A stretch of DNA of 64,000 nt from an uncultured Actinomycetota bacterium (GTDB lineage Bacteria > Actinomycetota > Actinomycetes > Mycobacteriales > CADCTP01). The first letter of the stretch is position 1; each line of letters begins with the position of its first letter. This document shows, one piece after another, positions 1-61,526 of the stretch. Position numbers and translations under genes: made by a program. The stretch lies in contig OY970235.1 in NCBI GenBank assembly GCA_963714145.1, positions 7,744,407 through 7,808,406 on the forward strand, written 5' to 3'. Below the pieces are notes generated by a model. The model searched no databases. It worked only from the letters and a program-made list of their open reading frames with translations, and was not told where the DNA came from.

Positions 1-3000
1 GACGCCAGCCGCAACCCGCTGTTCGACGTGCTCGTGCTGCTCCAGAATGCGCAGCCGGCACTGCCCGAGTTCGCCGGGCTGCGGGTAGCCGAGGTTGACG
101 TGCCGCGGCGGGCGGCCAATTTCGACATCAGCCTGGAGTTCCACCAGCGCACCGGGGCGGCCGGCGAGACGCTGGCCGGGCTGCTGGAGTACAACACCGA
201 CCTGTTCGACGCCGGCACGATCGAGCGGCTGATCAGCCACCTGACCGTCCTGCTGGACGCGATCGCGACCGAGCCGGGCCGCCCGCTGGCCAGCTTGCCC
301 TGGCTGTCCACAGTGGAACGCGAGCAGGTGCTGTCCGGCTGGAACGACACCCGCCGGGCGGTACCCGCCGGCACGATCGCCAGCCTGTTCGCCGAGCAGG
401 TGCGGCGGACCCCGGCGGCGACCGCGGTGGTCGCCCCGGACGGGACGCTGAGCTACGCCGAGGTGGACGCCCGGGCCAGCCGGCTCGCACACCGGCTGCA
501 CGCCCTCGGCGTCGGCCCGGACAGCCTGGTCTGCCTGCTGATGGAGCGGTCGGCCGATGTCGTCGTCGCGGAGCTCGCGGTGGCCAAGGCCGGCGGCGGG
601 TACGTGCCGCTCGACGTCCGGGCGCCGGCCTCCCGGCTGCGGCCACTGGTCGCCGAGACGGCCGGGCCGGTGCTGCTGACGGACCGGGCCTGGCTGCCCA
701 CCGCCGAGACCATCCACGATGGACACGTCCTGGTCGTCCGGGACGCGGCCGGCCCGGCCGCGATCCTGGACACGCTGCCGCCCGCGCTGCCCGAGGCCGG
801 GCCGGAGAACCTCGCGTACGTCATGTACACGTCCGGCTCGACCGGCTTGCCGAAGGGCGTCGCGATCCGGCAGCGGGACGTGGTCGCGCTGGCATTCGAC
901 CACCGGTTCCGGAACGGTGCGCACCAGCGGGTGCTGCTGCACTCGCCGCTGGCGTTCGACGCGTCCACCTACGAGCTCTGGGCCCCGCTGCTGTCCGGCG
1001 GGCAGGTGGTGATCGCACCGCCCGGCGACGTCGACGTCGACACTGTCCGGCGGGCGATCACCGAGCACGGCGTGACCGGGATGTGGCTCACCGCCGGGCT
1101 GTTCCGGCTGCTGGTCGGCGAGGACCCGGGCTGCCTGGCGGGCCTGCGCGAGGTCTGGACCGGCGGCGACGTGGTACCGGCCGCGGCCGTGCGCCGGCTG
1201 CAGGCCGCCTGTCCGGACGTCGTGGTGGTGGACGGCTACGGCCCGACCGAGGCCACCACGTTCGCCACCTCCTACCGGATGGCCGGGCTCGGCTCGGTGT
1301 CTGAGACGGTGCCGATCGGTGCCCCGCTGGACAACATGCAGGTGTTCGTCCTCGACAGTGCACAGTCACCGGTGCCGATCGGGGTGGCGGGTGAGCTGTA
1401 CATCGCCGGTGCCGGCCTGGCCCGCGGCTACCTGAACCGGCCTGGCCTGACCGCTGAGCGGTTCGTCGCCAACCCGTACGGTGCGCCCGGGGCGCGGATG
1501 TACCGCACCGGTGACGTGGTGCGCTGGCGTCCGGACGGCACCGTGGAGTTCGTCGGCCGGGCCGACGACCAGGTGAAGATCCGTGGCTTCCGGATCGAAC
1601 CCGGGGAGATCGAGGGCGTGCTGACCCGGCACCCGGACGTCGCCGAGGCGGTCGTCATCGCCCGCGCCGACGGCGGCCGCAAGCAGTTGGTGGCCTACCT
1701 GGTACCGGCCGCCGGGGCCGACCTGCCGTCCACATCGGACCTGCGGTCCTGGTTGAAGCGCAGCTTGCCGGACTACATGGTGCCGGCGGCGTTCGTCCCG
1801 CTGGCCGAGGTGCCGCTGACCGCCAACGCGAAGGTCGACCGGCGGGCGCTGCCGGCGCCGGATCCGAACGCCGACCCGGCCGGCCGGTATCTGGCGCCAC
1901 GCACGCCGGCCGAGCGCGAGCTGGCCGGCATCTGGTCGGACGTGCTCGGCGCCGACCGGGTCGGCATCGAGGACAACTTCTTCGAGCTCGGTGGCGACTC
2001 GATCCTGTCCATCCAGGTCGTCACCCGGGCCCGCCAGGCCGGCCTGCAGCTGACCTCGCGGGACGTGTTCCGGTACCAGACCGTCGCCGAGCTCGCCGCC
2101 CAGGCCGGCAGCGAGATCCGGCCGGCTGCCGGCCCGGGGTCGGTCGGGCCGGTGCCGGTTGGCGCCATCCAGCGCTGGTTCTTCGACTCCGACCCGCCCG
2201 ACCTGAACCACTTCTCCATGTCCACGCTGGTCGAGCTGGCGCCGGACGTCGACCCGGTCGCCCTGCGGTCCGCTGTGGACGCGGTTGTCGCGCACCACGA
2301 GGCCCTGCGCACCCGGTTCCAGCACACCGATGCCGGCTGGACCCAGCAGGTCAGCACCGAACCGCTGGCCGGCGTACTGGCCAGCCGCGACCTGTCCGAA
2401 CTGGACGGTCCGGCGCAGCAGGCGGCGATCGAGGCGGAGGCGCTGGCGGCGCAGACCAGCCTCGACATCACGGCCGGGCCGCTGGTCCGCGCGGTGCTGT
2501 TCACCCTCGGCGGCGGCCACCGGCCCCAGCTGTTCCTCACCGTGCACCACCTGGTGGTGGACGGCGTCTCCTGGCGGATCCTGCTCGGCGACCTGGAGAC
2601 CGCGTACCGGCAGGCGGTCGGCGGCCAGCCGATCACCCTGCCGCCGGTGGGGACCCCGGCGACCGAGTGGACGGCCCGGCTGATCGACCGGGTCGCCGCC
2701 GGCGAGCTGGCCGGTGAGCTGCCGTACTGGGCCAGCATGGTCGAGGGTGCCGCGGCCGACCTGCCAGTCGATCGGGCCGGCGCGAACACCGTTGGCTCGG
2801 CCCGGACCATCGCGGTCCGACTCGGCCCGGCGGACACGGACGCGTTGCTGCATCAGCTGCCGGGCCGGTTCCGCACCCAGGTGAACGACGTGCTGCTGAG
2901 CGCGCTCGGCGCGGCCGTGACGCGGTGGGCCGGCGTGAGCCGGGTGCTGGTCGAGCTGGAGGGCCACGGCCGCGAGGAGGAGGCGGTGGCCGGGGCCGAC

Positions 3001-6000
3001 CTGGCCCGCACCGTCGGCTGGTTCACCAGCCAGTTCCCGGTCGCGCTGACCGCGCCGGCCGGACGGAACTGGGGCGACGTGCTCAAGTCCACAAAGGAGC
3101 GGCTGGCGACGCTGCCGCACCGCGGCCTCGGCTATGCCGCGCTGCGTTACCTCGGCGGGCCCGCCTCGCCGGGCGCCGACCAGCCGGACCCGCAGCTCAG
3201 CTTCAACTACCACGGGCAGTGGGACCTCGCCGGTACCGGGCTCTACCGGGCCCGGTGCGCCACCCCGGGCCGGGATTTCGCGATCGCCGCCGAACGGGCC
3301 CACCTGCTCGACGTCACCGGCCTGGTCGAGAACGGCGAGCTCGAGCTGAGCTGGACCTACTCGACCGCGGTGCACGACGAGGCCACTGTTCGCCGGGTCG
3401 CCGGCGAGATGCTCGACGCCCTGCGCGAGATCGTGGCGTACTGCGCGCAGCCCGGCGTCGGCGGCCGGACGCCGTCGGACTTCCCGCTCGCCCGGCTGAC
3501 CCAGGCGCAGGTGGACTCGATCGTCGGCGACGGCCGGTCGGTGGCGGACGTGCACCCGCTGACCGCGCTGCAGGCCGGCATGCTGTTCCACAGCCTGGTC
3601 GACGAATCCTCGCAGGCGTACTTCGACCAGGCCCGGATCCGGCTGGCCGGCGTCACCGACCCGCGGGCGCTGGGCGAGGCCTGGCAGCGGGTGGTGGACC
3701 GGACGCCGGTGCTGCGCAGCAGCGTGGTCTGGGCCGGCGTGACCGAGCCGGTGCAGGTCATCCACCGCCGGGTGCCGTTGCCGGTGGCGTACCACGACTG
3801 GCGCGAGGTGTCCGATGTGGACGCTGCGGCGGCGAGGGTGGCCGAGGCCGAGCGCGTCGCCGGGCTGGACCTCACCAGGCCACCGTTGCTGCGGGTGGCG
3901 ATTGGCCACCTGCCGGCCGACGAGGTGCTGCTGATCTGGACGTTCCACCACGTCCTGCTGGACGGGTGGAGCCTGGGTCAGGTGTTCGCCGAGGTGTGTG
4001 AGCAGTACTCGGCGATCGTGGCCGGGCGGCGTCCGGAGTTGCCGCCGCGGCGGCCGTTCCGGGACTACCTGCAGTGGCTGCGTGACCAGGATCGGGCCGA
4101 GGCCGAGGCGTACTGGCGGGGCGTGCTGTCCGGTGTGGACGCCGCTACCCCGCTGCCGTACGACCGGCCGCCGGTCGAGGCACACCGGGCCGAGTCGGCC
4201 GGGTCGGTCCGCCGCACCCTCCCGGCCGAACGATCCACCGCCCTGCGCCGGCTGGTCAAGCGCAACGGGCTGACCCTGAACACGGTCGTGCAGGGTGCCT
4301 GGGCGGTGTTGCTGGCTGGTTATGGCGGTGTGGGTGAGGTGGTGTTCGGGTCGACGGTGTCGGGTCGGCCGGCTGAGTTGGCTGGGGTCGAGTCGATGGT
4401 GGGGATGTTCATCAATACGATCCCGACCCGGGTCCGGGTGGAGGGTTCCCGTGAGTTGGTGCCGTGGCTGCGGGAGTTGCAGGCGGCGCAGACCGAGGCG
4501 CGGCGGTTCGACTTCGTCTCGCTGCCGCAGTTGCAGTCCTGGGCCGACCTGCCCGCCGGCGCAAGCCTGTTCGACAGCATGGTGGTCTTCGAGAACTACC
4601 CGTTCGATGCCGCGCCGGCCGCCGAGGCCGGGCTGCGGATCCGCGAGGTGCAGGCGCAGGACACCACCAGCTACCCGCTCAGCCTCAGCGCGTACCTGGA
4701 CGACCGGCTGCACTTCGACCTCGCCTACGACCCGCGGCTGTTCGACGCCGCGACGGTCGAGCGCATGCTCGGCCATCTCGACCTGCTACTGGCCGGGATG
4801 GCCGAGGACCCGGACCGGACGCTGGCCGCGCTACCGCTGCTCACACCGGCCGAGCGGGAGCAGTTGCTGGTTGGCTGGAACCAGACCCGCCTGCCGGTGC
4901 CGGCCGGTTCCTACCCGGAGCTGTTCGAGGCGCAGGCGGCGGCGACTCCGGACACGACCGCGCTGGTCTGCGGCGGCGTGCGGTTGAGTTACCGGGAACT
5001 GAACACGCGGGCCAACCGGCTGGCCCGCTACCTGGTCGCCGTCGGGATCCGGCCGGAACAGATCGTCGCGCTCGCGCTGCCCCGCACTGCCGACATGATC
5101 GTGGCACTGCTGGCCGTGCTCAAGGCCGGCGCGGTGTACCTGCCGGTCGACCGCGGCCTGCCCGCCGACCGGATCGGCTACCTGCTCACCGACGCCGACC
5201 CCGCTCTCGTCCTGACCACCCGCGACAGCACGAACGTCCGGTCCGCAGTGGACGGCCGGCGGACCCGGATGCTGGACTGCCCGGACGCGGCAGCGGCGAT
5301 CTCCGGTTACGCCGGCACCGACCTGACGGACGTGGAGCGGGCCGGGCCGCTGACCCCGGGTAGCGCCGCGTACGTGATCTACACGTCCGGTTCGACCGGG
5401 CGGCCGAAGGGTGTCGTGGTTTCGCACGGCAACCTGGCCAACCTGTTCCACGCACACCGCACCGGCCTGCTGGCCGGGCCGCTGGACACGGCGATCGAGC
5501 GGTCCGGGCGGGCCCGGGTCGCGCTGACCGCGGTGTTCTCGTTCGACACGTCCTGGGAGGGCCCGCTGCTGATGGCGGCTGGGCACGAACTGCACCTGAT
5601 CGACGACGACACCCGCCTCGACCCGGCCGCCCTGGTCGACTACGTCGCCACCAACCGGATCGACTTCCTGGACCTGACACCCTCATACGCGCAGCAACTC
5701 GTCGCCGCCGGCCTGCTGACCGACCCGCGGCACCAGCCGGCCACGCTGATGCTCGGCGGCGAGGCAGTGGGCGGGGCGCTCTGGCGCGACCTCGCCACCA
5801 CCGAAGGCACGACCAGCCTGAACTTCTACGGCCCCACCGAGTGCACTGTGGACACCCTGTCCTACCCGGTCACCGCCGCGGACCCGCGGCCGCTGGTCGG
5901 CCGCCCACTCGGGAACGTGCAGGCGTACATCTTGGACGGTCGACTCGGGCCGGTCCCGGTCGGGGCGGCTGGCGAGCTGTACCTGGCCGGCGCCCAGGTG

Positions 6001-9000
6001 GCCCGCGGCTATCTCAACCGGCCCGGGCTGACCGCCGACCGGTTCGTCCCCGACCCGTACGGTGCGCCCGGCACCCGGATGTACCGCACCGGCGACCGCG
6101 CCCGCTGGACACCAGACGGCGCCATCGACTACCTCGGCCGCGCCGACGACCAGGTCAAAATCCGCGGCCACCGGATCGAACCCGCCGAGATCGAAACCGC
6201 ACTGCTGCAGCACCCAGCCGTGGCCGCTGCCGCGGTGATCGCCCGGCAGGACGGCGGACCCACCCGCCTGGTCGCCTACCTGGTGCTGGCGACCCCGGAA
6301 CTCCCACCCGACCTGCGCGGTTGGCTGAGCCGGACGCTGCCCGACTACATGCTGCCGGCCGCGTTCGTCCCGCTCGCCGCGCTGCCGCTGACCTCAGCCG
6401 GCAAGCTGGACCGCCGCGCGCTGCCCGCGCCGGACTTCGACCGGGCCAGCGGCGCCGACTTCGCCGCCCCGCGGACACCGGCCGAGCGGGAACTGGCCCA
6501 GATCTGGGCCGATGTGCTCGGCCTGACCAGGGTCGGCCGGCATGACAGCTTCTTCGAACTCGGCGGCGACTCGATCCTGTCGATCCAGGTGGCCTCCCGG
6601 GCCCGGACCGCGCTCGGCGTGGACATCTCGCCGCGCGCGTTGTTCACCACGCCGACGATCGCCGGCCTCGCCGCCGGCCTGCCCACCGGTACGGGCCCGG
6701 AGCTGACCGGCATCCCGGTTCACCCGCGGGACGGCGCGCTGCCGCTCTCGTTCGCCCAGCAGCGGCTCTGGTTCCTGCACGAGTTCGAGCCGGACAGCAC
6801 CGAATACATCACCCCGACCGCGCTCCGCCTCCACGGCACGCTCGACCAGGCGGCGCTGCGCACCGCGTTCAACCAGCTCGCGGAGCGGCACGAGTCGCTG
6901 CGTACCACCTTCGACTCAACCGACGGCAGCCCGAGCCAGGTCGTCCACCCACCGTCCGAAGTAGACCTCCCGGTGCTCGACCTGACCGGCTGCCCGGCCG
7001 CCGAGCGGGACGCCCGACTGCAGGACGCGCTGGCCGAGGAGAGCGGGCGACCGTTCGATCTACAGCGCGGGCCGTTGCTGCGGGTGCGGTTGATCCGGCT
7101 GGCTGCCGACGATCACGCGCTGGCCATCACCATGCACCACATCATTACCGACGGCTGGTCGGCCGGTGTGCTGCTGACCGACCTCGCTGCCCTGTACGCC
7201 GCCGCGCTCGGTGCAGAGCCGGCCGGCCGGCCCGAGCTGCCCGTCCAGTTCGCCGACTTCGCCGCCTGGCAGCGGGCCCGGCACACCAGCTCCACAGTGG
7301 ACAGCCAGCTCGACTACTGGCGCACCCAGCTCGCCGGAGCACCGCCGCTCGACCTGCCCACCGACCGGCCACGCCCGACGGTACGGACCAGGAACGGCGC
7401 CACCATCGAGTTCGAACTGCCGGTGGAGACCACCGCGGCGCTGAAGAAGCTGGGCCAGCACCATGACGCGACGCTGTTCATGACGCTGGCCGCCGCCTAC
7501 CAGGTCCTGCTCAGCCGGTGGACCGGGCAGGCCGACATCAGCGTCGGTACGGTCACCGCCGGCCGTGACCACCCCGACCTGGAACACCTGATCGGCTTCT
7601 TCGTCAAGACGCTGGTACTGCGCAGCACGGTGGTCCCGGACAGCACGTTCACCGAATTCCTGGCCGACCTGAAGCGCACCGCGGTGGACGCCTTCGAGCA
7701 CGCCGACATCCCGTTCGAGCGGCTGGTGGACGAGCTGCAGCCCACCCGCGACACCAGCCGGACCCCGCTGTTCCAGACCATGATCGCGCTGCACAACACT
7801 CCGGTCGGGGTGGCCGAGCTGCCCGGCCTGGAGCTGACCGAGATCGAACCGCCGGCCGGGACCGCGGCGTTCGACCTCGGGGTGGACTTCCAGGAGCGGG
7901 ACGGTGTGCTGGCCGGCTCGATGAACTACAACACCGACCTGTTCGACGCGTCGACCGTGCACCGGATGGTCGGGCAACTGCTGGTGCTGCTGGACGGCAT
8001 CGCCGCCGATCCGGCCCGGCCGGTGGCCGACCTGCCGGTGCTGTCCGAGGCGGAACACCGGCAGGTGCTCCAGGAGTGGAACGGGACCGACCTGCCGGCG
8101 GTGGTCGATTCCTTCGTCGAGCTGTTCGAGGCCCAGGCCGCGCGTACGCCCGACCACACCGCCGTGGTCGCCGGGGGCGAGCAGCGCAGCTACGCCGAGC
8201 TGAACGCTGAGGCGAACCGGCTGGCCCGGCTGCTGATCCAGCAGGGTGCCGGCCCGGAGCGGATCGTCGCGCTCGCGCTGCCCCGGACGACCACCGTGAT
8301 CGCCGCACTGCTGGCCGTACTGAAGGCCGGCGCGGTGTACCTGCCGGTCGAGCGGGAGCTGCCGCCGGACCGGATCGGCTACCTGTTCGACGACGCCTCC
8401 CCCGCCCTGGTCGTCACCACCCGCGACAGCGTCAACGTCCACAGTGGAGCCCAGAGTGCCGGCAGCCGGCTGCTGGTACTGGACGATCCGGACGTTGCGG
8501 CCGCCGCCGCGATGCAGCCGGCGGTCGACCTGACCGACGCCGAGCGCGGCTGGCCGATCCGGCCGGACAGTTCCGCGTACGTGATCTACACGTCCGGCTC
8601 GACCGGGCGGCCGAAGGGCGTCCTCATCCCGCACCGCGGCCTGGTCAGCCTGGCCCGCGGCCAGCAGAGCTGGCTGCAGCCACTGGTTGCCCACCTGGGC
8701 CGGCTGCGGTTCGCGCAGACCGCGGTGTTCTCGTTCGACACGTCCTGGGAGGGCCCGCTGCTGATGGCGGCCGGGCACGAGCTGCACCTGATCGACGAGG
8801 AGACGCGGCTGGACGCGCCCGCGCTGGTCGACTACATCGCCGAACGCCGGATCGACGCGCTGGACCTGACACCGACGCACATCCAGCATCTACTCGCCAA
8901 CGGCCTGCTCACCGACGTGCGGCACCGACCGGGACTGCTGATGGCCGGCGGCGAGCCGGTCAGCGAGGCGCTCTGGCAGGAGCTCAGCGCCGTCGACGGC

Positions 9001-12000
9001 ACCCTGAGTGTCAACGTCTACGGCCCGACCGAGTGCACTGTGGACGCCACCGCGCACCCGATCAGCCCGGGCAGCCGGCCGGCGATCGGCCGCCCGTTGC
9101 CGAACCTGCGGACGTACGTGCTGGACGAGCGACTGCACCCGGTGCCGGTCGGCATCCCCGGCGAGCTGCACCTGGCCGGCCCGCAACTGGCCCGCGGCTA
9201 CCTGAACCGCCCCGGTCTCACCGGCGAGCGGTTCATCGCCAACCCGTATGGGCGGCCCGGCAGCCGGATGTACCGCACCGGTGACCGGGTCCGGTGGACC
9301 GCCGACGGTGTGCTGGAGCACCTGGGGCGGACCGATCAGCAGGTCAAGATCCGCGGCTTCCGGATCGAGCCGGGCGAGATCGAGTCGGCCCTGCTGGCGC
9401 ACCCGGCCGTCGTGGCCGCCGCGGTGGTCGCATGGGAGAACGAGGCCGGCCACCGGCAGCTCGTGGCCTACCTGGTGCCGGCTCCGGACGCGACGCTGCT
9501 TGGCCCGGCCGAGCTCCGGCCGTGGCTGAAGCGCACGCTGCCGGAGTACATGGTGCCCGCCGGCTACGTCACGCTGGACGCGCTGCCGCTGACGTCGAGC
9601 GGGAAGCTGGACCGGCGCGCGCTGCCGGCACCGGTGTTCGAGGCCACCGGCGATGGTGGCTACGTGCCGCCACGGTCGCCGGTCGAGCAGGAACTGGCCC
9701 GGGTCTGGGCCGGCGTGCTCGGTGCCGCCCGGGTCGGCATCGAGGACAACTTCTTCGAGCTCGGCGGCGACTCGATCCTGTCCATCCAGGTGGTCGCGCG
9801 GGCCCGGCAGGCTGGCCTGCGGCTGTCCGCAAAGGACATCTTCCTCTACCAGACCATCGCCGAGCTTGCCGCCAGCGTCGCGCTGGTGGACGAGCCGACC
9901 GGGGCGGCCCAGCCGGTGATCGAGGGTCCGGCCCCGCTCGGCCCGATCCAGCAGTGGTTCCTGGAGACCGAGACCGGCACGCCGAACCACTTCACCATGT
10001 CGATGCTGGTGGACCTGGCCCCGGACACGGACACCGAGACGCTGCGGTCCGCCGTGGACGCGGTGATCGCGCAGCACAGCGCGTTCCGGCTCCGGTTCCG
10101 GGACATCGACGGCCGCTGGCAGCAGGAGCTCACCCCGCCGCTGGCCGCCGGCGGCGTCCAGGTGGTCGATCTGTCCGAACTGGACGGTGCCGCGCAGCAG
10201 GCGGCGATCGAAGCGGAAGCGCTGGCGGCGCAGACCGGCCTCGACATCGCCGCCGGGCCGATGCATGCCGCCCGGCTGTTCCTGCTCGGCGCCGGTCGCC
10301 GGCCGCGGCTGTTCCTGACCGTGCACCACCTGGTGATCGACGGCGTCTCCTGGCGGATCCTGTTCGAGGACATCGAGACCGCGTACCAGCAGCTGCGGTC
10401 CGGTCAACCGGTCGCACTCGGCCCGGTCGGCACCGGCTACCTGGAGTGGACCACCCGGCTGGCCGAGCACGTCCACTCCGGACAGTTGGACGCCGACCTC
10501 GCGTACTGGGCGCAGCGCTCGGCCGGCGCCGGCGACGCGCTGCCGGTGGACCGGGTCGGCACGAACACCGTCGGTTCCAGCGAGACGATCACCGTTCGGC
10601 TCGGTGCCGAGGAGACGGACGCGCTGCTGCACCAGGTGCCTGGCGTGTTCCGGACCCAGGTGAACGACGTGCTGCTGAGCGCGCTAGGCGCGGCGGTCGC
10701 TACCTGGACCGGTCGCGACCGGGTGCTGGTCGCGCTGGAGGGACACGGCCGGGAGGAGATCCTGGCCGGCGTCGACCTGTCCCGCACGGTCGGTTGGTTC
10801 ACCGCCGAGTTCCCGGTCGCGCTGACGATGCCGGCCGGCGCGGTGCCGACCGGCGCGGTACCGGCCGGCGACTGGGGTGCCGTGCTCAAGTCGGTCAAGG
10901 AGCAGTTGCGGGCGGTGCCGCATCGCGGGCTCAGCTACGGCGCGCTGCGCTACCTGAGCGGGCCGGACTCACCGGCCAGCGTGTTGCGCGCCGACCCGAT
11001 GCCGCAGATCAGCCTGAACTACCACGGCCAGTGGGGCGTCGGTGGCGCCGCGACCGGCCTGTTCCAGGGCGGCGGCGCCGGCGTCGGCCAGGACGCCGCG
11101 CCCGGCAGCCCCCGCAGCTACCTGCTGGAAATCACCGGCGCGGTCGAGAACGGCGAGCTGGAGCTGGGCTGGACCTATTCGACCGCGGTGCACGACGAGG
11201 CGACCGTCCGCCGGCTGGCCCAGTCCGTGCTGGTCGCGCTGCGGGAGATCGTGGCCTACTGCGCCCGGCCGGAAGCCGGTGGCCGCACGCCGTCGGACTT
11301 CCCGCTGGCCGGGTTGACCCAGTCGCAGGTGGACACCGTGGTCGGCGACGGCCGGTCGGTGGAGGACGTCTACCCGCTGACCGCGCTGCAGGCCGGCATG
11401 CTGTTCCACAGCCTGGTCGACGGCCGGAGCGCCTACTTCGACCAGCTGCGGATACGGCTCGGCGGCATCACCGACCCACAGGCGCTGGGCGCCGCCTGGC
11501 AGCGGGTGGTGGACCGGACGCCGGTGCTGCGCAGCAGCGTGTGCTGGGACGGTGTCCCCGAGCCGCTGCAGGTCGTGCACCGCCGGGTCGGCCTGCCGGT
11601 CGAGCACCATGACTGGCGCGCACTGTCCGATCAGGACGCGGAGCGGGCGATCGAGCGGGCGCTGGCCGCGGACCATGCGGCCGGGGTGGACCTGACCGCC
11701 GCGCCGCTGCTCCGGGTCATGATCGGCCGGCTGTCCGACGACGAGGTGCTGCTGGTCTGGACCGCACACCACATCCTGCTGGACGGTTGGAGCCTGGGTC
11801 AGGTGTTCGCCGAGGTGTGCGAGCAGTACTCGGCGATCGTGGCCGGGCGGCGTCCGGAGTTGACGCCGCGGCGGCCGTTCCGGGACTACCTGCAGTGGCT
11901 GCACGACCAGGACCCGGCCGGCGCCGAGGCCCACTGGCGGGCCGTGCTGTCCGGTGTGGACGCCGCCACCCCGCTGCCGTACGACCGGCCGCCGGTCGAG

Positions 12001-15000: not shown

Positions 15001-18000
15001 CTGACCGACCTGGCCGAGTTCTACACCGCCGCCGTCGAGGGCCGGCCGGCGGACCTGCCCCCACTCCCGATCCAGTACGCCGACTTCGCGGCCTGGCAAC
15101 GCGAACAGCACGCCGGCTCCACTGTGGACGGCCAGCTCGACTACTGGCGTACCGCGCTCGCCGACGCGCCGACGCTGGAGTTGCCCATCGATCACCCGCG
15201 TCCGCTGGTACAGACCAAGAACGGCGGCACCGTCGACGTCACGCTGTCCGCGGAAGTGACCGAGCGGCTCAAGCGGATCGGGCAGCGGCACGACGCGACG
15301 CTGTTCATGACGCTGACCGCCGCCTACCAGACCCTGCTCGCCCGGTGGACCGGGCAGCGCGACATCACGATCGGCACGGTCACCGCCGGCCGCGACCACC
15401 CCGACCTCGGCCACCTCATCGGCTTCTTCGTGAACACCCTGGCGCTGCGTTCCACAGTGGACCAGACCGCCACGTTCACCGAGCACCTCGCCGCCGTACG
15501 GGAGACCGTGCTCGGGGCGTTCGGCAACGCCGATGTCCCGTTCGAGCGGTTGGTGGACGAGCTGCAGCCCACCCGCGACACCAGCCGGACGCCGCTGTTC
15601 CAGACCATGCTCTCGCTGCAGAACACGCCGACCGCGGCCGGCGGGCTGCCCGGGCTGGAACTGTCCGACCTGGAGCCGCCGACCGCGACCGCACCGTTCG
15701 ACCTGACCGTCGAGTTCGGTGAGTCGGAGACCGGCCTGCAGGGCGTGCTGACCTACAACACCGACCTGTTCGACGGCAGCACCGGGCAGCGGCTGGCCGA
15801 GCAGCTGCGCATCCTGCTGCACGGCATCGCCGCCGACGCCGACCGCCCGCTCGTCGACCTGCCGATGCTGCCGGCAGCGGAGCGGGACCGGCTGGACAGC
15901 TGGAACGCGACCGACCGGGCGATCGGGCCGGTCACCTTCCCGGCGCTGTTCGAGGCCCAGGTGGCCCGGACCCCGGCCGCACCGGCGCTGCTGACCGGCG
16001 ACGGCCCGATCAGCTACGCCGAGCTGAACGCCCGGGCGAACCGGTTGGCCCGGGTGCTGATCCAGCACGGTGCCGGCCCGGAGCGGATCGTCGCGCTCGC
16101 CCTGCCCCGCTCGGTGGACATTGTCACCGCGCAGCTCGCGGTGCTGAAGGCCGGCGCCGCGTACCTGCCGATCGACCCGGCCTACCCGGCCGACCGGATC
16201 GCGTTCATGCTCGCGGACGCGCGGCCGGTGCTCACCCTGGCCCACCGGGACGGCGCGCCCGCCGGCAACGTCCTCGCCGTCGACGACCCGACCGTCCAGT
16301 CCATTGTGGACGACCAGCCGGACGGTGACCTCACCGACGCCGACCGGATCGCACCGCTGCGGATCACGCATCCGGCCTACGTCATCTACACCTCCGGCTC
16401 GACCGGAAAGCCCAAGGGTGTCGTCATCGCGCACACCGGGCTGGCCAGCTTTGCCGCCGCCGAGATCGAACGGTTCGACGTGCGGCCCGGCGACCGGGTG
16501 CTGGAGTTCTCCTCGCCCAGCTTCGACGCGTCCGTGCTGGAGCTGTGCATGTCGCTGCCGGCCGGCGCCGCGCTGGTCGTACCGCCGCCGGGCCCGCTGC
16601 TCGGCCAGCAGCTCGCCGACGTCCTGGCCGCGAACAAGGTGACCCACGCGCTGATCCCGCCGGCCGCGCTGGCCACCGTGCCGGCCGCCGACCTGACCGA
16701 GTTCCGCGGGCTGATCGTCGGCGGCGACGCCTGCACGGCCGAGCTGGTGCAGCGCTGGGCGCCGGGCCGGCAGATGATCAACGCGTACGGGCCGACCGAG
16801 TCCACTGTGGTCGCGACCTGGTCGGCGCCGCTGGTGCCGGGGCCGAGCGCGCCGCCGATCGGTCGACCGATCCTGAACACCCGTGCCTACGTGCTGGACG
16901 CGCTGCTGCGGCCGGTGCCGATCGGCGTGCCCGGCGAGCTGTACGTGGCCGGCATCGGGTTGGCCCGCGGCTACCTGAACCGGCCCGGGCTGACCAGCGA
17001 GCGGTTCGTGGCCAACCCGTACGGCCAGCCCGGCAGCCGGATGTACCGCACCGGCGACCGGGTCCGGTGGGCCGCCGACGGCCAGCTGACGTTCCTGGAA
17101 CGGGCCGATCACCAGGTGCAGATCCGCGGTTTCCGGGTCGAGCTCGGCGAGGTGGAGACGGCGTTGCTGCGGCACGAGGCGATCGCCGCGGCGGTGGTGA
17201 CGGCCCGCGCCGACACCGGCCACAAGCGACTCGTCGCCTACCTCGTGCCGGCCGGCCCGGAGCTGCCCGGCATTGCCGAGCTGCGCGAGTTCCTCGGCCG
17301 GACACTGCCCGACTACATGGTCCCGGCGGCGTTCGTCCCGCTGGCCGCGCTGCCGCTGAACCCGAACGGCAAGCTGGACCACCGGGCGCTGCCAGCACCG
17401 GCGCACGTCCAGCCGGCGGGGGAGGAGTACCGGCCACCGCGGACACCGACCGAGCGGACGCTGGCCGACATCTGGGCCGACGTGCTCGGCCTGGACCGGG
17501 TCGGCATCGAGGACAACTTCTTCGAGCTGGGCGGTGATTCGATCCTGTCCATCCAGGTCGTCTCCCGGGCCCGGCAGGCCGGGCTGCGGCTCACCCCGAA
17601 AGACCTGTTCGGGCACCAGACCGTGGCCAGCCTGGCGCCGGTCGTCACCGCCGAGACCGGCGGTGAGCCAGCGCGGGAGCAGGTGACCGGGGCGGTGCCG
17701 CTGACCCCGATCCAGCACTGGTTCTTCCAGCAGCAGCCCACCAGCCCGCACCACTTCAACCAGTCCACCCTCGCCGAGCTCACCGAGGACGTGGACGGCA
17801 CCCTGCTGGAGCGGGCGTTCGAGGCGCTGCTCACCCACCATGACGCGCTGCGGATGCGGTTCAAGCAGGTGGACGGTCGCTGGCGGCAGTGGAACGCGCC
17901 GGCCGAGCCGACCCAGCTGCTCTTCCGCCGCGATCTGTCCGAGCTGGCCGAAGAGCGGCAGCTGGCCGCGATGGAGCAGGCCGCGGACGACCTGCACGCC

Positions 18001-19014
18001 AGCCTCGACCTGCGCCGCGGCCCGCTGTTGAAGGCGATGCTGTTCAACCGCGGCCCCGGCCGCCGGCCGATGTTGTTCGTCGCGGTGCACCACCTAGTCG
18101 TCGACGGCGTCTCCTGGCGGATCCTGCTGGACGACCTGGAGACCGCCTACCGGCAGGCGGCCAGCGGCGGCCCGATCGACCTGGGCGCCAAGACCACCTC
18201 GGTCCAGGAGTGGTCCGAGCGGCTGAGCGAGTACGTCCGCTCCGGCGGCCTGGACCGCGAGTTGGCGCACTGGGCCGCGGCCGCGCCGGCCGGCCCGCTC
18301 CCGGTCGACCGGCCGCCGGCCGAACAGCCGGCACCGGTCCGAACGGTCGCCATCGCACTGTCCACTGCGGACACCGAGGCACTGCTGCGGGCCGCGCCCG
18401 GCGTCTACCGCACCCAGGTGAACGACGTGCTGCTGGCCGCGCTGGCCTCGGCGCTGTCGAACTGGACCGGACAGCGCCGGGTCGCGGTCGACCTGGAGGG
18501 GCACGGCCGGGAGGAGATCCTGGACGGCGTCGACCTGTCCCGCACGGTCGGCTGGTTCACCACGGTGTTCCCGGTCGCGCTGGAGGTGCCGGCCGGCAGC
18601 CCGGACTGGCGGACGCTGATCAAGTCGATCCGCCGGCAGTTGCGCTCCGTTCCCGGCAACGGGTTCGGCTACGGCGCCCTGCGGTACCTCGGCTCGCCGG
18701 CGGTGGCCGATCGGCTGCCGGACGCTCCCGGCGCGGAGGTCGTGTTCAACTACCTCGGCCAGTGGGACGCCCGCTCGCAGCAGGCCGAGACCGGCCTGAT
18801 CCAGGTCTCGCACGGCTCGTTCGGCCAGGACCATGATCCGGCCGACCAGGGTTCGCACCTGCTCGAAGTGGTCGGCGCCGCGTCCGGCGGGCAGCTGGAG
18901 TTCACCTGGTACTATCGGCCGGACCGGCACGACGAGTCCACAGTGGAATCCGTCGCGGCCGGCTTCGCCGCCGCGCTGCGCCAGATCGCGCAGGACTGCC
19001 GGGCCGCCCGATGA
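1..19014 (+). CDS. Non-ribosomal peptide synthetase, 5'-truncated by the window; five modules visible: (C)-A-T-E / C-A-T / C-A-T-E / C-A-T / C-A-T-E; no terminal TE or reductase
   Basis: Frame is open from base 1 ([10 protein letters not shown]..., end of a C domain). Five A domains with YTSGSTG(L/R/K)PKG, YGPTE and YRTGD motifs; five PCP motifs FFELGGDSI (~1980, 6550, 9750, 14390, 17520); three E domains HHL(V)(V/I)DGVSW (~2545, 10325, 18090); C domains [18 protein letters not shown] (DCL-type, after E) and [18 protein letters not shown] (LCL-type). Stop at 19014 overlaps the next start (ATGA). Confidence 0.97.
3961..6212 (+). repeat. Internal NRPS duplication, copy 1 (DCL C domain plus A domain of visible module 2)
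   Basis: Near-identical DNA blocks recur at a constant offset of 7821 nt (3961/11782, 4291/12112, 6016/13837). Confidence 0.9.
11782..14033 (+). repeat. Internal NRPS duplication, copy 2 (DCL C domain plus A domain of visible module 4)
   Basis: Matches 3961-6212 at +7821 nt, with long identical stretches that include rare-codon G/T-rich and C/A-rich patches. Confidence 0.9.
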
Positions 19015-20516
19015 CCGGCCAGCCCGTGGCTCCGCCGGCGGCCGCGCCGGCAAAGCCACCGCTGTCCCGCAACCGCGACTACCGGCTGCTGTGGACCAGC
19101 CAGGCCCTGGCCGAGTTCGGGGTGAACGCGACGATCATCGCGTTCCCGCTGCTGGTGCTCGCGCTCACCGGCTCGGCGGCCGCGTCCGGGCTGGTGCTCG
19201 GCACGATCGCGGCGGCCCAACTGGCTGCCGGGCTGCCGGCCGGCGCACTGGTGGACCGGTGGAACCGCAAGCGACTGATGCTCGGCTGCGAGGCGGCCCA
19301 GGCGGTGGCCGCGGCCAGCCTGGTCGCCGTGCTGCTCTGGGGCACCGCGACGGTACCGCACCTGGTCGCCGTGGCCGCGGTGTTCGGGCTGTGCGCGGCG
19401 CTGTTCGAGCCGGCCGAGGAGTCCTGCCTGCCGAACCTGGTCGAGCCCGAGCAGCTGCCCACCGCGATCGCGATGAACTCGGCCCGCGGCTACCTGGGCC
19501 ACCTCTCCGGCACGGCCGCCGGCGGGTTCCTGTTCACACTGGGCCGGTTCGTGCCGTTCGCGGCGGACGTGGTCACGCACACCGCGGCGTTCTGCACGCT
19601 GGCCTTCGTGCGGGTGCCCGCCCGGGCGAAGGTCGAGGTGGAACGCAAGCACCTGGGCCGGGAGATCGCCGACGGGCTGCGCTGGGTCTGGCGGCACCGG
19701 CACATCCGGGTCACCATGCTCTGCGCCGTCGTGCTGAACCTGTTCTTCAGCGCCTTCTACATCGTGGTGATCGTGCTCGCCCAGCGCCGCGGTGTCCCCA
19801 GTGGACAGATCGGCATCATGGCCGCGATGCTCGGCATCGGCGGAATAGCCGGGGCGCTGCTCGCCCCGTACCTGCACCGGGTGCTCAGCCCGTACCAGTC
19901 GATCGCCGGTGTCTTCTGGGCGTTGACCGTGCTCACCCCGGCGGCCGTGTTCGTCCACAATGGATACGCCATGGGCGGCCTGTTCGCCGCGATGGCGCTG
20001 CTCCCGCCGGCGGCGAACACCACGATCATGACGCAGCAGTTGCTGCTCACCCCGGATCATCTGCGCGGCCGGCTGAGCAGCGTGCTGGGCCTGGTCACCG
20101 GCGTCGCGGCCACCATCGGCCCGGTGCTCGGCGGCGTGCTCGCGCAGACCCTGGACGGCAGCCGACCGGTGCTCGTCTGCGCGGTCGGCATGGCCGTGGT
20201 CACCGTGGCCGTCACCGCCAGCGGCACGCTGCGCGGCTTCCCCACCCACCAGACCGCCGCGACCGACGTCGCGGCCGACCCGAGTCACAACCACCCGAAG
20301 GAGATGGAGATGGACGACAACGCCCGGTACGAGGTGCTCCGCAACGACGAGGACCAGTACTCGCTCTGGCTCGCCGGCCAGGAGGTACCGGCCGGCTGGC
20401 ACCGGGTAGGCAGGGAGGGCAGCAAGGAGGAGTGCTCGGCCTACGTCGACGAGGTATGGACCGACATGCGCCCGCGCAGCCTCCGCGAGCAGATGGACGG
20501 TGCGGCCAGCTCCTGA
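19011..20516 (+). CDS. MFS exporter with an in-frame C-terminal MbtH-like domain
   Basis: About 12 hydrophobic segments and MFS motif A ([12 protein letters not shown]). The C-terminal ~68 aa has the MbtH signature NDEDQYSLW...VPAGW...[14 protein letters not shown]. Confidence 0.92.
20310..20516 (+). CDS. mbtH: MbtH-like protein, possibly also translated from its own internal start
   Basis: AAGGAG at 20298-20303 lies 6 nt before an in-frame ATG at 20310. The product [20 protein letters not shown]... is a complete MbtH-like protein. Confidence 0.7.
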   Translation: MDDNARYEVLRNDEDQYSLWLAGQEVPAGWHRVGREGSKEECSAYVDEVWTDMRPRSLREQMDGAASS

Positions 20517-24761: not shown

Positions 24762-24766
24762 CCACT

Positions 24767-54424: not shown

Positions 54425-54433
54425 GCCGGGGCC

Positions 54434-54462
54434 GCCGCGACCGGCCCCGGGTCGGTCGCGGC
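54434..54462. terminator. Hairpin between convergent genes
   Basis: GCCGCGACCG pairs with CGGTCGCGGC. Confidence 0.45.
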
Positions 54463-54480
54463 AGCCCTGGCGCGGCGCGG

Positions 54481-55449: not shown

Positions 55450-55570
55450 GAATCCTCCTCAGCTGACAGCGAATAACCCCACCCCCGACGTGGCGTCCAA
55501 TCTGTACCACGGGCGGTCGCCGGCGGCGCGAGGTTCGGCCGAACGGTCAACACGGTCGTACCGTTGGTCG

Positions 55571-56625: not shown

Positions 56626-56825
56626 CCCGCACCCCCCACTGCATGGAGGCGGCGGCGGGCCGCCCAGATACAGCGTGCGGCCGACCGGATCCGGACGCCA
56701 GCTCGACCAACGTCCGGTGTCGCGGGCCGGACGCCAATCCGCCCCGGGCCGGTCGAAAACCACTGGAACCCGGTCGGGTCGGCCGGTGTAGCAGCGGCGT
56801 GCAGTCTCGAATCCAGGGAGCTTCC

Positions 56826-57437: not shown

Positions 57438-58149
57438 TCCAGTCCGGGAGGTGCTGGTCCAGCTCCCGGCGCAGGTCGAGCGCGTCGGTATGCAGCGCGG
57501 TGACCAGCAGCCCGGGGCCGGCCAGCGGCATCGCCGCGCACGTCGGGCCGGCCGTTCCGGCCGGTCGCTGCACTGTCCATTGTGGATCGATCTGGAGCAG
57601 GGTGCCGACCGCGCCGGCACCGACCATGGACGCCGGCGCGCGGGTGGCCGGGTCGGCGCCATCCAGGTCGAGCCGGTGCCGCAGCAGCGGCGCACCGGCG
57701 GCGTCGGCGTGCAGCCGGCCGTGGTACCGGCCACCGGGCTCGCCGTGCCGGCCCAGCAGTACCTCCTCGCGCAGCAGCAGCACCCCACCGGCCTCGACCT
57801 CGACCAGCGTGCTGGCCCGGTGGCAGGCGCCGGCGGCGATCACCGTCGGCTCCGGCAGCACCGCCAGCCGGCCGCCGGCCGCGACCGACACCGTCACGGT
57901 CAGCGTGGACGGGCCCGGGCCGGGCAGCACGACCGTGGCGGCCACCGTCCGCAGCACCAGTTCGGCGCCCGGTCCGACCACAATGGACAGTTTCAGGTCG
58001 TCGCCGCCGAGCGGGCCGGCCGCGCTGGCGGCCAGGTAGAGCACACCGCCGGCCGGCCGCAGGGTCAGCGGCGGCTGCGAGCGCAGCGTGGTCAGCCGGG
58101 TGCCGCCGTCGCGGCCGGCCGCCGCCACGACCGCCGCGCGCGCCTTCAC
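57409..58149 (-). CDS. ureD: Urease accessory protein UreD
   Basis: [37 protein letters not shown]; GTGA overlap with the ureG stop. Confidence 0.85.
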
Positions 58150-58946: not shown

Positions 58947-59799
58947 AGAGACGCACCTCCGATCGCGCGTGCAGTTCGGCGAGCAGGTCCAGCCGGGGCG
59001 CGGCCGGACAGGGTAGGTCGGCCGGCGGCCCGGCGGCCGCCGCCACCGCCCGGTCGGCGACCGCCGCGATGTCGCCGGCCAGCCCGGCCAGCACGGCGTG
59101 CACCAGCAGCGGGTCGAAGCCGCGCAACCGGATCGCCGCGGTGGCCGGCCCGGACACCGCCAGGTACCCGGCCGCCAGCGCGGCGGCGGTGGCATCGCCG
59201 CCCGCGGCGACACTGACCGCGCCCAGCGCCACCGGGTGATGCGGCCCGCCAGCCCGCCCTGCCGTGCCGGCCCGCCCGGTCGGCCCGCCCGGCCCGGCCG
59301 GGAGGTCCAGCGCGCCCAGCCCAGCCAGTACCGGGCCGGGCCAGGCGGCCCGGCCGGCGCGCAGCAGCGCCCGCCCCTGCTGCCGGGACGCTGCCCGCTG
59401 CGCCGGTGACGGGGTCCGTGCGTCCGCCTCCGCGTCGAGCTCGGCCCAGGCACCCGCCGAATCCACTGTGGACGCGTCGATGGCCCGGCCCGGCCCGGCT
59501 GCCGCTGCTGGCCGCGGGTCCACACCGTCCGGCGTCGACCCACCGTCGACCGGACTCGCCCCGCCACCGGCATCCACTGTGGACCGCCCGGCGAGCCGGG
59601 CCGCCGCGGCGGCCAGTCCGGCGGCCACCAGTCCGGCCGTCCACAGCCGGCCGCGCAGGAAGCCGGCCAGGCCGGCCGGGTCGTGGACCAGACCCGCGTC
59701 GAGCGCCGCCTCCATCCCGCCGGAGTGCGCGTGCCCGCCGGCCGGCAGCCGGGAGTCGGTCAGCAGCACCAGCGCGACTGCTGCGGGTAGCGAGGTCAT
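58936..59799 (-). CDS. ureF: Urease accessory protein UreF
   Basis: [18 protein letters not shown] and C-terminal RLFAS; carries low-complexity insertions. Confidence 0.9.
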
Positions 59800-59804
59800 C
59801 GGGC

Positions 59805-61526
59805 TCAGAACAGGAAGTAGCGCTGGGTCATCGGCAGTTCGACGGCCGGCTCGGCCTCGATCACGTCGCCGTCGATGCGGACCGTGAAGGTGTCCGGCTC
59901 GACCTCGACCCGCGGCAGCGCGGTGTTCTCCGGCAGGTCGGCCTTGCGTAGCGACCGGACATCGCCGACCGGCACCAGCGGCCGGGGCAGTTGCAGCCGC
60001 TCGGCCAGCCCGTCCGCCAGCGCGGCCGGCGCGACGAAGGTCAGCGAGGTGGCCGCGGCGGCCCGCGGCGCGGCGCCCCACATCGGCCGGGGCAGCACCG
60101 GCTGCGGCGTCGGGATCGAGGCGTTCGCGTCGCCCATCGCGCCCCAGGCGATCAGCCCGCCCTTCAGCACGACGTGCGGCCGGACGCCGAAGAACGCCGG
60201 CTCCCAGAGCACCAGGTCGGCCAGTTTTCCCGCCGCCACCGAGCCGATCTCGGCGTCCAGTCCATGTGTGACAGCCGGGCAGATCGTGTACTTCGCGACG
60301 TACCGGCGGGCCCGCAGGTTGTCCGCCGCGCCATCGCCGGCCAGCGCGCCGCGCCGCTGCTTCATCACATGCGCGGTCTGCCAGGTGCGGATGATCACCT
60401 CGCCGATCCGGCCCATCGCCTGCGCGTCCGACCCGATCATCGAGATCGCGCCGAGGTCGTGCAGCACGTCCTCGGCGGCGATGGTGGACGGCCGGATCCG
60501 GCTCTCGGCGAAGGCGAGGTCTTCCGGCACGGCCGGGTTCAGGTGGTGGCAGACCATCAGCATGTCGAGGTGCTCGTCGATGGTGTTCACCGTGAACGGC
60601 CGGGTCGGGTTGGTGGACGACGGCAGCACGTTCGGGTGGCTGACCACGGTGATGATGTCCGGCGCGTGCCCGCCGCCGGCACCCTCGGTGTGGTAGGCGT
60701 GGATGGATCGGCCGGCGATAGCGGCCAGCGTGTCCTCCACGAAGCCGGCCTCGTTCAGCGTGTCGCTGTGCAGCGCCGCCTGCACGCCGGCCTGGTCGCA
60801 CACCCGCAGGCAGGCGTCGATGGCGGCCGGCGTGGAGCCCCAGTCCTCGTGCAGCTTGAAGCCGGCCGCGCCGGCCCGCAGCTGCTCCCACATCGCCGGC
60901 GCGGACACGGTGTTGCCCTTGCCCAGCAGCATCACGTTCACCGGCAGGTCGGCCATCGCGGCGTGCATCCGGGCCAGGTGCCAGGAACCGGGGGTGACCG
61001 TGGTCGCCTTGGTGCCCTCGGCCGGGCCGGTGCCACCGCCGATGACCGTGGTGATGCCGGCGCCGAGCGCCTCCGGGATCAACTGTGGACAGATCAGGTG
61101 CACGTGGCAGTCGATCGCGCCCGCGGTCAGGATCTTCCCGTTGCCGGCGAGGATCTCGGTGGACGGCCCGATCACCAGGTCCGGGTGGACGCCGGTCATC
61201 GTGTCCGGGTTGCCCGCCTTGCCCAGCGCGGTGATCCGGCCGTCCCGGATGCCGACGTCCGCCTTGATCACGCCCCAGTGGTCCAGGATCACCGCTCCGG
61301 TGATGACGAGATCCGGGGCGCCCTCGGCCCGGGTGGCCAGCGACTGCCCCATCGACTCGCGGATCACCTTGCCGCCGCCGAACACCGCCTCGTCACCGGC
61401 GACCGGCCCGCGGGACAGATCCTCGGTGACTTCGATCAGCAGGTTGGTGTCGGCCAGCCGGATCCGGTCGCCGGTCGTCGGCCCGTACAGCAGCGCGTAC
61501 CGCTGCCGGGTCAGCTCAGCCGGCAT
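59805..61526 (-). CDS. ureC: Urease alpha subunit
   Basis: [53 protein letters not shown]. Confidence 0.98.

Follow-up and report, generated by a model that had tools for sequence, protein, structure and literature searches.

The 64-kb stretch of DNA analysed here (the window; positions 7,744,407–7,808,406 of the single 10,076,357-bp contig, 97% complete, of an uncultured soil bacterium of the Actinomycetota, genome G000) carries many copies of an 11-bp palindrome, TCCACWGTGGA, in which W is A or T. The word is spread over the whole chromosome in numbers far above those predicted by composition, codon and dicodon nulls. It follows sharp sequence rules, is restricted to certain lineages, is conserved between congeners while its positions turn over, and tends to cluster, and no methylase matching it was found in the families searched. 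Taken together, the sequence patterns suggest that the word may be the recognition site of a symmetric DNA-binding protein with a chromosome-wide, position-independent role, a reading that we judge to be about evenly poised.

Abundance of the palindrome in the genome

Across G000 (10.08 Mb, 73.4% GC) the exact word occurs 449 times, with 4–27 copies per 250 kb, while Markov models of orders 0–4 expect 0.4–1.5 copies for each of the two words, A-centred and T-centred, that it comprises. At Markov order 3 these are the top two over-represented 11-mers of the genome, and over orders 0–9 their counts stay unexplained until the model itself holds the 8-mers. With relaxed forms counted there are 1586 sites, or one per 6.4 kb, the exact form alone occurring once per 22 kb.

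Genes were called by codon-usage scoring of open frames, a crude procedure that yielded 7212 genes covering 81% of G000. These genes hold 341 of the exact copies, and 108 lie outside them. The genic expectation is 4.5 ± 2.0 under a within-gene shuffle of synonymous codons, 0.65 under a permutation of whole codons and about 7 under a first-order codon chain derived from dicodon counts. The enrichment thus persists under a null that preserves dicodons. The word is also confined neither to one region nor to one repeat family, with 449 copies genome-wide and at most six of the 341 genic copies in any one called gene.

Sequence rules and the level of selection

Extended by one base on each side, the palindrome reads GTCCAC(A/T)GTGGAC; 74% of copies have the G at −1, and 74% the C at +11. 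Beyond this 13-mer the flanks show codon periodicity only and no extended repeat. When the flanks are held fixed, the centre is A in 222 cases, T in 227, C in 7 and G in 8, that is, 449 A/T-centred against 15 C/G-centred sites. Every class of the form TCC-NN-W-GTGGA is at least 10-fold enriched, whereas the C/G-centred classes stand at about 0.5-fold. Among the former, enrichment depends on NN, being 584-fold for AC, up to 393-fold for AT, about 220-fold for TT and TA, about 160-fold for AA and about 60-fold for GA. The GA class (TCCGAWGTGGA) has 339 sites and its doubly substituted form only 8, which indicates that one perfect half is needed. Outer triplets with an A/T centre but without a perfect half are enriched only 2.0-fold.

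The mirrored outer GGA is strongly required. Following the 3633 GTCCACW sites of the genome, the next five bases are GTGGA in 666 cases, TCGGA in 298, CCGGA in 128 and ATGGA in 110, and the eight commonest 5-mers ending in GGA cover 1441 of the 3633 sites. A symmetrised table of single mismatches shows the inner C to be the most tolerant position (160-fold for A, 287-fold for T) and the outer positions to be less so; a C/G centre reaches 1.6-fold. At the fourth base the order of preference is A > T > G > C. The symmetric flanks, the combination of one perfect half with an outer triplet, and the A/T centre would fit a reader of double-stranded DNA with two-fold symmetry, such as a dimer.

Several observations separate a DNA target from a peptide target. 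Threonine is encoded in G000 by ACC or ACG in 96.5% of cases and by ACW in 3.5%, but TCC-AC[A/T]-GTG spells 267 of the 349 S-T-V-[D/E] peptides, where codon usage predicts fewer than two. Composition predicts 41 STVD peptides and 287 are found, whereas close relatives such as TTVD, ATVD and SAVD are at expectation; the motif has therefore altered protein sequences, and not codons alone. The resulting footprint in G000 amounts to about 250 extra S-T-V-D/E peptides. By frame the genic copies divide into 267, 30 and 44, a bias attributable to the codon cost of the other two frames, and by strand into 171 and 170. That selection acts at the DNA level, as the original prediction had proposed from the window, is strongly supported by the centre base, the codon and dicodon nulls, the recoded proteome and the conservation between congeners described below.

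Distribution among genomes

To place the word among relatives, 401 genomes of the same order, each at least 90% complete, were surveyed with a threshold of at least 20 exact copies; the reversed pattern, used as a control, never exceeded 5. The threshold was reached by 71 of the 401 genomes; in the other orders of the class, 144 genomes were counted and the maximum was 13 copies, so that none reached it. All 15 other genomes of the family to which G000 belongs carry the word, in 7–324 copies. Using our own family numbers, the genomes with at least 20 copies are 46/58 in f15, with up to 717 copies in 6.6 Mb, 7/8 in f1 (the family of G000), 4/4 in f8, 3/3 in f9, 4/5 in f13, 2/11 in f14, 1/2 in f10, 1/1 in f4, 2/58 in f2 (both of genus g71) and 1/57 in f17. 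None were found in f12 (58 genomes), f5 (41), f6 (24), f18 (57), f19 (6), f3 (4), f16 (3) or f11 (1). Poor genera occur inside rich families, with 6–17 copies in g42, 4–11 in g70, 4 in g90 and none in g92 or g28. Among the genomes counted here, G022 (f8, which without it stands at 3/3) and G212 (one of the motif-poor f2 genomes) are unpublished, and the conclusions are independent of both.

Named database records with tandem pairs of the motif were, among the matches listed, mostly from Pseudonocardiaceae (Amycolatopsis, Lentzea, Saccharomonospora, Prauserella, Streptoalloteichus, Allokutzneria and others). Further named records among these matches belong to Micromonosporaceae (Actinocatenispora, Virgisporangium, Dactylosporangium, Rugosimonospora), to Jatrophihabitantaceae, and to metagenome-assembled genomes (MAGs) labelled Mycobacteriales. 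When 710 kb of G001, a congener of G000, were scanned for enriched 11-mers without bias, the word came out on top. The same kind of scan on samples from G375, which has no copies, G031 and G004 revealed no replacement palindrome of this kind. In G375, a member of a motif-rich family, overlapping enriched 11-mers from C1:1-500000 appear to combine into a perfect palindrome of about 40 bp with some 13 copies per 500 kb, closer to a hairpin of the repetitive extragenic palindrome (REP) type than to a word lying in genes, and in G004 the word TGTCCACAGAT occurs 6 times in 269 kb.

Motif pairs are also present in unrelated phyla (Heyndrickxia, Shewanella, Arsenophonus and others); at four such loci, neither a replication-origin gene nor a shared neighbour was seen among the eight flanking genes scanned. 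Eleven viral stretches from IMG/VR carry motif pairs as well and gave no lead to a host reader. Two of these phage contigs (L159:990-1090 and L162:11900-12060) hold arrays of at least five WGTGGAC boxes that include full palindromes. The L162 array lies directly upstream of genes resembling small and large terminase subunits and may be a packaging or origin region.

Conservation, turnover and decay

Conservation was measured in one pair of genomes, G000 and G001, over 410 kb in aligned blocks with 86.6% identity. The motif is kept in both genomes at 14 of the 19 G000 sites and 14 of the 22 G001 sites, in one case with the centre changed from A to T, while 32.5% of 3585 same-phase control 11-mers are identical (binomial probabilities 2.8e-4 and 2.7e-3). 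Sites are kept between these congeners about twice as often as control words. Of the 13 sites that are not shared, 12 differ by substitutions and one by a gap, and several of the counterparts are variants allowed by the relaxed rules. The two copies in the UreF gene are the exception: at 59440–59600 of the window, on the minus strand, this gene contains a low-complexity extra segment of about 120 bp that G001 lacks, edged by two motif copies with the same centre base.

At greater distances individual positions are mostly not shared, as seen in 22 aligned cases against named genomes at 64–82% identity. At one of these loci (L099, 82% identity) both sites are kept exactly, and three others have a one-mismatch counterpart. 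In G000 there are 1.64 one-mismatch copies for each exact one. Among genomes of genus g2 this ratio ranges from 1.25 (G009; 158 exact, 198 near) through 2.5 and 3.5 to 6.3 (G004; 7 exact, 44 near). Many of the near copies in G004 have a C or G centre, and the pattern in this genome looks like decay after a constraint was lost.

Arrangement along genes and chromosome

The copies in G000 are clustered. Twenty neighbouring pairs lie less than 200 bp apart against 4.0 expected, and 93 of the 449 sites are accompanied, no more than 100 bp away, by a partner with up to two mismatches, as against 4.8% of random positions; the spacings are mostly 13–24 bp. Many non-genic copies are situated 3–30 bp past a stop codon, often accompanied by a degenerate second copy. 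Convergent spacers contain 0.090 sites per kb, tandem spacers 0.066, genes 0.042 and divergent spacers, which hold promoters only, 0.021. The Poisson probability is 0.0008 for the convergent excess (0.039 with clusters counted once) and 0.003 for the divergent deficit, and sites look costly in promoters. About 25 of the copies scored as intergenic are probably genic, because the GTG inside the motif was mistaken for a start codon in gene calling.

Longer genes are also denser in sites: per 100 kb, genes shorter than 1.5 kb hold 3.3 and those of at least 6 kb about 10 (33 sites against 13.8 expected, P = 8e-6). Clustering of the genes that flank 98 high-GC named tandem-pair loci gave one recurrent cluster, in which nine of ten loci lie in genes of the size of polyketide synthases (PKS) or non-ribosomal peptide synthetases (NRPS), and otherwise only an Amycolatopsis oxidoreductase/HAMP locus. 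Named genomes with tandem pairs inside genes of PKS/NRPS size number nine; they belong to several genera, and at least two carry the label Amycolatopsis.

On the scale of the chromosome, GC skew places the origin at about 7.4 Mb and the terminus at about 2.0 Mb; dnaA lies at 7,512,885–7,514,255. Sites number about 55–61 per Mb around the origin and 33 around the terminus, a 1.7-fold fall (Spearman −0.76, p = 0.011). A replication-strand bias was found neither for the asymmetric variant nor for the central base in G000. The longest motif-free gap (224,558 bp; 7,382,242–7,606,800) spans oriC and dnaA together with every one of the five good parS sites, which lie at 7.507–7.529 Mb and are perfect in four cases and one mismatch off in the fifth. 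The chance of a gap this long around a fixed point is about 5e-4, and the window begins 137.6 kb past its end. In G008, the sole other genome compared, the parAB side of dnaA has copies at distances of 3 and 13 kb, and its dnaN side has a gap of 161 kb (p = 0.15). The origin and parS domain may be kept free of sites, a lead that comes from these two genomes and is repeated weakly in G008.

Methylases and comparison with HIP1

The original prediction had likened the word to HIP1, the hyper-abundant palindrome of cyanobacteria. In the available sections of PMC4390886 and PMC5861425, HIP1 is described as lying both in and between genes and as being conserved above controls. The accessible part of PMC4390886 further states that abundance of such a palindrome always goes together with a DNA methyltransferase for it or for its core, and that of PMC5861425 reports periodic chromosomal spacing of 10–90 kb. 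The last two features, methyltransferase and spacing, did not carry over to G000, for which no matching methyltransferase was found in the families searched (PF00145, PF01555, PF02384 and PF02086, with PF03852 for Vsr), no Vsr and no periodic spacing. Profile searches of G000 with PF01555 and PF02086 gave no match, a single weak PF02384 (N6-like) protein was obtained, itself found in only 2 of 41 genomes, and PF03852 detected no Vsr. The only C5 methylase (PF00145) of G000 resides in a prophage-like block; in the 41 genomes searched, PF00145 is absent from all 15 others of the family, every one of which bears the motif, yet present in several motif-free genomes. One-mismatch neighbours of the word are enriched 5- to 287-fold for 14 of the 15 half-site variants, not depleted. 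The block with the C5 DNA methylase (G000:C1:3427000-3444400) also encodes, judged by eye, excisionase-like, RusA-like and lysozyme-like products.

Copies within the window

The GC content of the window is 0.70–0.76. All nine exact copies that the original prediction had placed there are present at the positions it gave, against 0.05 expected from dinucleotide shuffles, and none of 100 shuffles reached nine. With up to one mismatch allowed there are 24 sites against 0.73 expected. The 15 one-mismatch copies include the 11 that had been given before and four that had been overlooked, marked in the table below. By the crude gene calls, the frame of eight of the nine exact copies is TCC-ACW-GTG-GAx (S-T-V-D/E); the ninth, at 8438, is shifted by one base and reads xTC-CAC-AGT-GGA. 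Plus-strand genes hold seven of the nine, and the minus-strand UreF gene holds two.

Six of the exact copies are in NRPS sequence, five in condensation domains and one in an adenylation domain, and none in linkers or at module joints. The copies at 7291 and 15118 do occupy homologous NRPS positions, as had been claimed: their flanks are 75% identical over 191 bp, while every other pair shows 30–40%. Adjacent to this region, at 19011–20513, a major facilitator superfamily (MFS) transporter is fused to a C-terminal MbtH-like domain, and its gene overlaps the end of a 6700-aa NRPS gene.

Copies of the palindrome in the window, with up to one mismatch
Copy	Positions	Sequence	Location and remarks
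Exact	307..317	TCCACAGTGGA	NRPS gene, near the end of a condensation domain; frame S-T-V-D/E
Exact	7291..7301		NRPS condensation domain; homologous to the copy at 15118 (flanks 75% identical)
Exact	8438..8448		NRPS adenylation domain; one base off-frame (..H-S-G)
Exact	15118..15128		NRPS condensation domain
Exact	15451..15461		NRPS condensation domain
Exact	18937..18947		Terminal NRPS condensation-like domain
Exact	33100..33110		193-aa plus-strand gene (crude call); frame S-T-V-D/E
Exact	59462..59472		Minus-strand UreF gene, within the ~120-bp segment absent from congener G001
Exact	59573..59583		UreF, opposite edge of the ~120-bp extra segment
One mismatch	2269..2279	TCCGCTGTGGA	NRPS; not in the original prediction
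One mismatch	5242..5252	TCCGCAGTGGA	NRPS; not in the original prediction
One mismatch	5842..5852	TGCACTGTGGA	NRPS
One mismatch	9034..9044	TGCACTGTGGA	NRPS
One mismatch	16300..16310	TCCATTGTGGA	NRPS; commonest variant class genome-wide
One mismatch	16801..16811	TCCACTGTGGT	NRPS
One mismatch	18361..18371	TCCACTGCGGA	NRPS
One mismatch	19795..19805	TCCCCAGTGGA	MFS-MbtH gene; not in the original prediction
One mismatch	19954..19964	TCCACAATGGA	MFS-MbtH gene
One mismatch	24761..24771	ACCACTGTGGA	Between two called genes
One mismatch	36363..36373	TCCAATGTGGA	Not in the original prediction
One mismatch	39002..39012	TTCACTGTGGA	
One mismatch	42034..42044	TCCACTGTGGG	Outside called genes
One mismatch	57576..57586	TCCATTGTGGA	Minus-strand gene
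One mismatch	61079..61089	TCAACTGTGGA	Urease alpha-subunit gene

Two other words are exceptional in G000. TTGCCTCAGTC has 37 copies against 0.05–0.16 expected, and TTAGGTTA has 7 copies with an expectation near zero (shown as 0); the latter resembles what we take to be half of an iron box.

Discussion

Under the reading that we prefer, selection on double-stranded DNA would keep a lineage-specific word, and the number of copies per chromosome would matter rather than each position. The reader would be a homodimer acting along the chromosome in the manner of MatP at matS, SlmA at its binding sites (SBS) and Noc at its binding sites (NBS), with an inferred role in chromosome organisation. Each subunit would read the outer GGA and prefer ...GT beside the obligatory A/T centre, so that a site would suffice if one half were perfect and the other kept its outer TCC. 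Copies may have been written into genes by point mutation through the rare threonine codons ACA and ACT, often altering the protein to S-T-V-D/E. That most copies are genic follows from only about a fifth of G000 being non-coding. Lineages that lose the reader would let the word decay.

A number of points weigh against this reading. No reader protein was found among the candidates examined in G000: DnaA is the only protein of the genome with a DnaA C-terminal domain, with no extra one, and ParB is present in its canonical form without a paralogue, leaving no Noc-like reader. Fourteen small proteins beside promoter-side copies, considered as an autoregulated reader and read by eye only, included no obvious regulator. 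The threefold density in genes of at least 6 kb is not predicted by a role in chromosome organisation. Periodic spacing was not significant in a Rayleigh-type spectrum of 5–300 kb with 300 within-bin randomisations (p = 0.11 for exact and 0.067 for relaxed sites), a test simpler than that of PMC5861425. The frame and intergenic figures rest on the crude gene calls. Finally, about 450 exact and 1586 relaxed sites are far above the known sets of nucleoid-protein sites and could point to molecular drive in place of selection on each site.

One further candidate counts on the same side. A 191-aa protein is encoded directly after parB on the minus strand (G000:C1:7521464-7522036); it has at least 2821 relatives and belongs to no Pfam family. 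Its AlphaFold model (mean predicted local distance difference test score, pLDDT, 91.9) predicts an N-terminal ASCH fold like that of YqfB, named as an N4-acetylcytidine (ac4C) amidohydrolase, followed by a MarR-like winged helix. This ASCH-winged-helix protein occurs in 30 of the 41 motif-free f5 genomes and in only 20 of the 58 genomes of f15, is absent from the motif-decayed G004 of genus g2, and is scattered over 113 of the 401 genomes of the order. Four of these 113 carriers (G212, G198, G299 and G135) are unpublished, and the conclusions are independent of them. As its occurrence at the scale of the order does not track the motif, it was rejected as the reader. MraZ was also considered and set aside: the region upstream of mraZ in G000 has GTGG(A/G)G direct repeats and no palindrome, and MraZ is presumably universal. 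In one Clostridia MAG a motif pair lies upstream of mraZ-rsmH.

Among the other explanations, molecular drive, in which an uptake, conjugative translocation or recombination machine prefers the word, as happens with uptake sequences and Chi, and spreads it without a benefit from each copy, comes closest to the preferred reading in probability but seems unlikely to us. It would accommodate the large copy number (449 exact and 1586 relaxed sites), the turnover of positions with abundance kept, the on/off pattern by lineage, the threefold density in genes of megasynthase size with tandem pairs in PKS/NRPS-size genes at nine of ten loci, and the copies just downstream of genes, a location also favoured by uptake sequences. 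However, known uptake, KOPS (FtsK-orienting polar sequences) and Chi words are non-palindromic and 5–20 times denser, replication-strand bias is absent both from the asymmetric variant and from the central base, and the six NRPS copies of the window sit within catalytic domains and not at module joints. A HIP1-like process, by which a methyltransferase would read the word or its core while methyl-directed short-patch repair creates and maintains it, appears improbable. The general picture matches that given for HIP1 in the available sections of its sources, and the commonest one-step variant is the inner C-to-T change (147 sites), as deamination of a methylated C would give; however, no enzyme of the searched families tracks the word, G000 yielded no Vsr, and near-neighbour words are enriched rather than depleted. 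We attach as little weight to the possibility that two DnaA boxes, overlapping head to head, make up the word, and that it titrates or reactivates the replication initiator DnaA by binding it. The resemblance to the box noted in the original prediction holds at the level of the letters, since the spacer between dnaA and dnaN and the region upstream of dnaA in G000 itself use the box TTGTCCACA, and GTCCACA matches 7 of its 9 letters. GTCCACW is moreover about 2.5-fold enriched, TTGTCCACA occurs 50 times against 11.5 expected, and motif density falls from origin to terminus. The likeness fails at the level of the rules and of the lineages. In DnaA boxes we take the CACA core to be critical and one box position to be free, but in the word the inner AC is the most tolerant part and the position taken as free is among the least tolerant. 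A reader of single boxes would not need the far-side GGA that is strongly required here, and the origin region contains TTGTCCACA as single boxes but no copy of the palindrome, and it lies within the longest stretch free of the motif. DnaA, with the same box, should be present in all these lineages, and each of the eight genomes checked has it, as does G000; the word, however, reaches 20 copies in only 71 of the 401 genomes of the order.

The remaining two accounts carry far less probability. An RNA or translational signal, be it a hairpin, an RNA-protein site or a pause at the rare ACA and ACT codons, is very improbable. Its appeal lies in the 267 of 341 genic copies that share one frame holding a rare codon and in the TCCGAWGTGGA variant being found 198 times in sense and 86 times in antisense; on the other hand, copies are found in every frame, on either strand and also in intergenic DNA, a stem of 5–6 bp around a one-base loop cannot form, and RNA pairing does not fit because the fourth base follows A > T > G > C and not the A/G of wobble. 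Least probable of all is that the word results from composition or codon usage, from a protein motif or gene family that recurs, or from a very small mobile insertion, an account to which two of the nine window copies at homologous NRPS positions, and the UreF copies bracketing a segment absent from G001, could be ascribed. Composition, codon and dicodon nulls fail by 50- to 500-fold, no gene has more than six of the 341 genic copies, 12 of 13 lineage-specific sites are substitutional, and the flanks are without an extended repeat.

If a symmetric reader of GTCCAC-W-GTGGAC does exist, the word could be the trace of an undescribed chromosome-wide DNA signalling system in filamentous actinomycetes, a proposal whose chances of being right or wrong we see as roughly equal. 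Such a system would be present in most sampled genera of one large family (Amycolatopsis, Lentzea, Saccharomonospora and other Pseudonocardiaceae by the named records), in some Micromonosporaceae and in several uncultured families; it would have rewritten codons and proteins, would have been lost repeatedly with subsequent decay of the word, and may spare the origin and parS. A literature search for the letters or consensus of the motif, or for such a word in actinomycetes, brought up primers or nothing of relevance (supplementary files lay outside its scope). HIP1, uptake sequences, Chi, KOPS and matS are each a hyper-abundant word that led to some chromosome biology, and to our knowledge HIP1 is still unexplained after decades. 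The present word is a comparable one in a different phylum, and its host genera are culturable, genetically tractable antibiotic producers. It is also testable, owing to its sharp rules, the C/G-centred form as a natural negative control, the on/off contrasts between sister genera and even within a genus, and the measurable S-T-V-D/E footprint in the proteome. In practical terms, megasynthase genes carry the motif at three times the average density, and transfer of codon-optimised or refactored biosynthetic genes to or from these hosts will leave those genes without it.

The palindrome can be compared with several known kinds of repeated word. REP elements and miniature inverted-repeat transposable elements (MITEs) are extragenic hairpin units with conserved flanks that spread by insertion, whereas the word lies in called genes in 76% of cases, its flanks are conserved for one base per side only, and 12 of 13 lineage-specific sites differ by substitutions. 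DNA uptake sequences (DUS) and uptake signal sequences (USS) are asymmetric words with about one copy per kb that a competence machine takes up preferentially, and Chi and KOPS are strand-biased. They and the word are alike in being over-represented at the level of a family or order, in lying in genes and often just downstream of them, in turning over and in possibly being subject to drive; the word, however, is palindromic, lacks strand bias and occurs once per 6–22 kb, unlike the asymmetric and denser DUS/USS, Chi and KOPS. The actinobacterial DnaA box TTGTCCACA has the letters GTCCACA in common with the word, which needs a mirrored second half. HIP1 (GCGATCGC) and the alternate cyanobacterial palindromes, as far as the available sections of their sources describe them, resemble the word in being short palindromes, hyper-abundant within and between genes against codon preference, lineage-specific, and conserved between related genomes above control words. 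They differ in that the word has 11–13 bp with an obligatory A/T centre, belongs to Actinomycetota and is found once per 22 kb (per 6 kb in relaxed form), while HIP1 has 8 bp, belongs to cyanobacteria and occurs up to once per 350 bp.

The sites of nucleoid-organising proteins, also invoked in the original prediction, provide the best reading, even though that analogy is left without its reader protein. The matS, SBS and NBS sites of MatP, SlmA and Noc are palindromes of 12–16 bp, read by dimers and located mostly in genes, and their exact position is immaterial. Compared to these sets the word has ten to sixty times more sites and shows no strict exclusion apart from a possible one around the origin, repeated only weakly in G008; homologues of MatP, SlmA and Noc were not identified in G000, where ParB is canonical only. 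The site sets and the word nevertheless have in common that they are palindromic, that they lie mostly in genes and that they form a large-scale pattern on the chromosome, seen for the word in G000 as the 1.7-fold fall from origin to terminus and the 225-kb gap at the origin.

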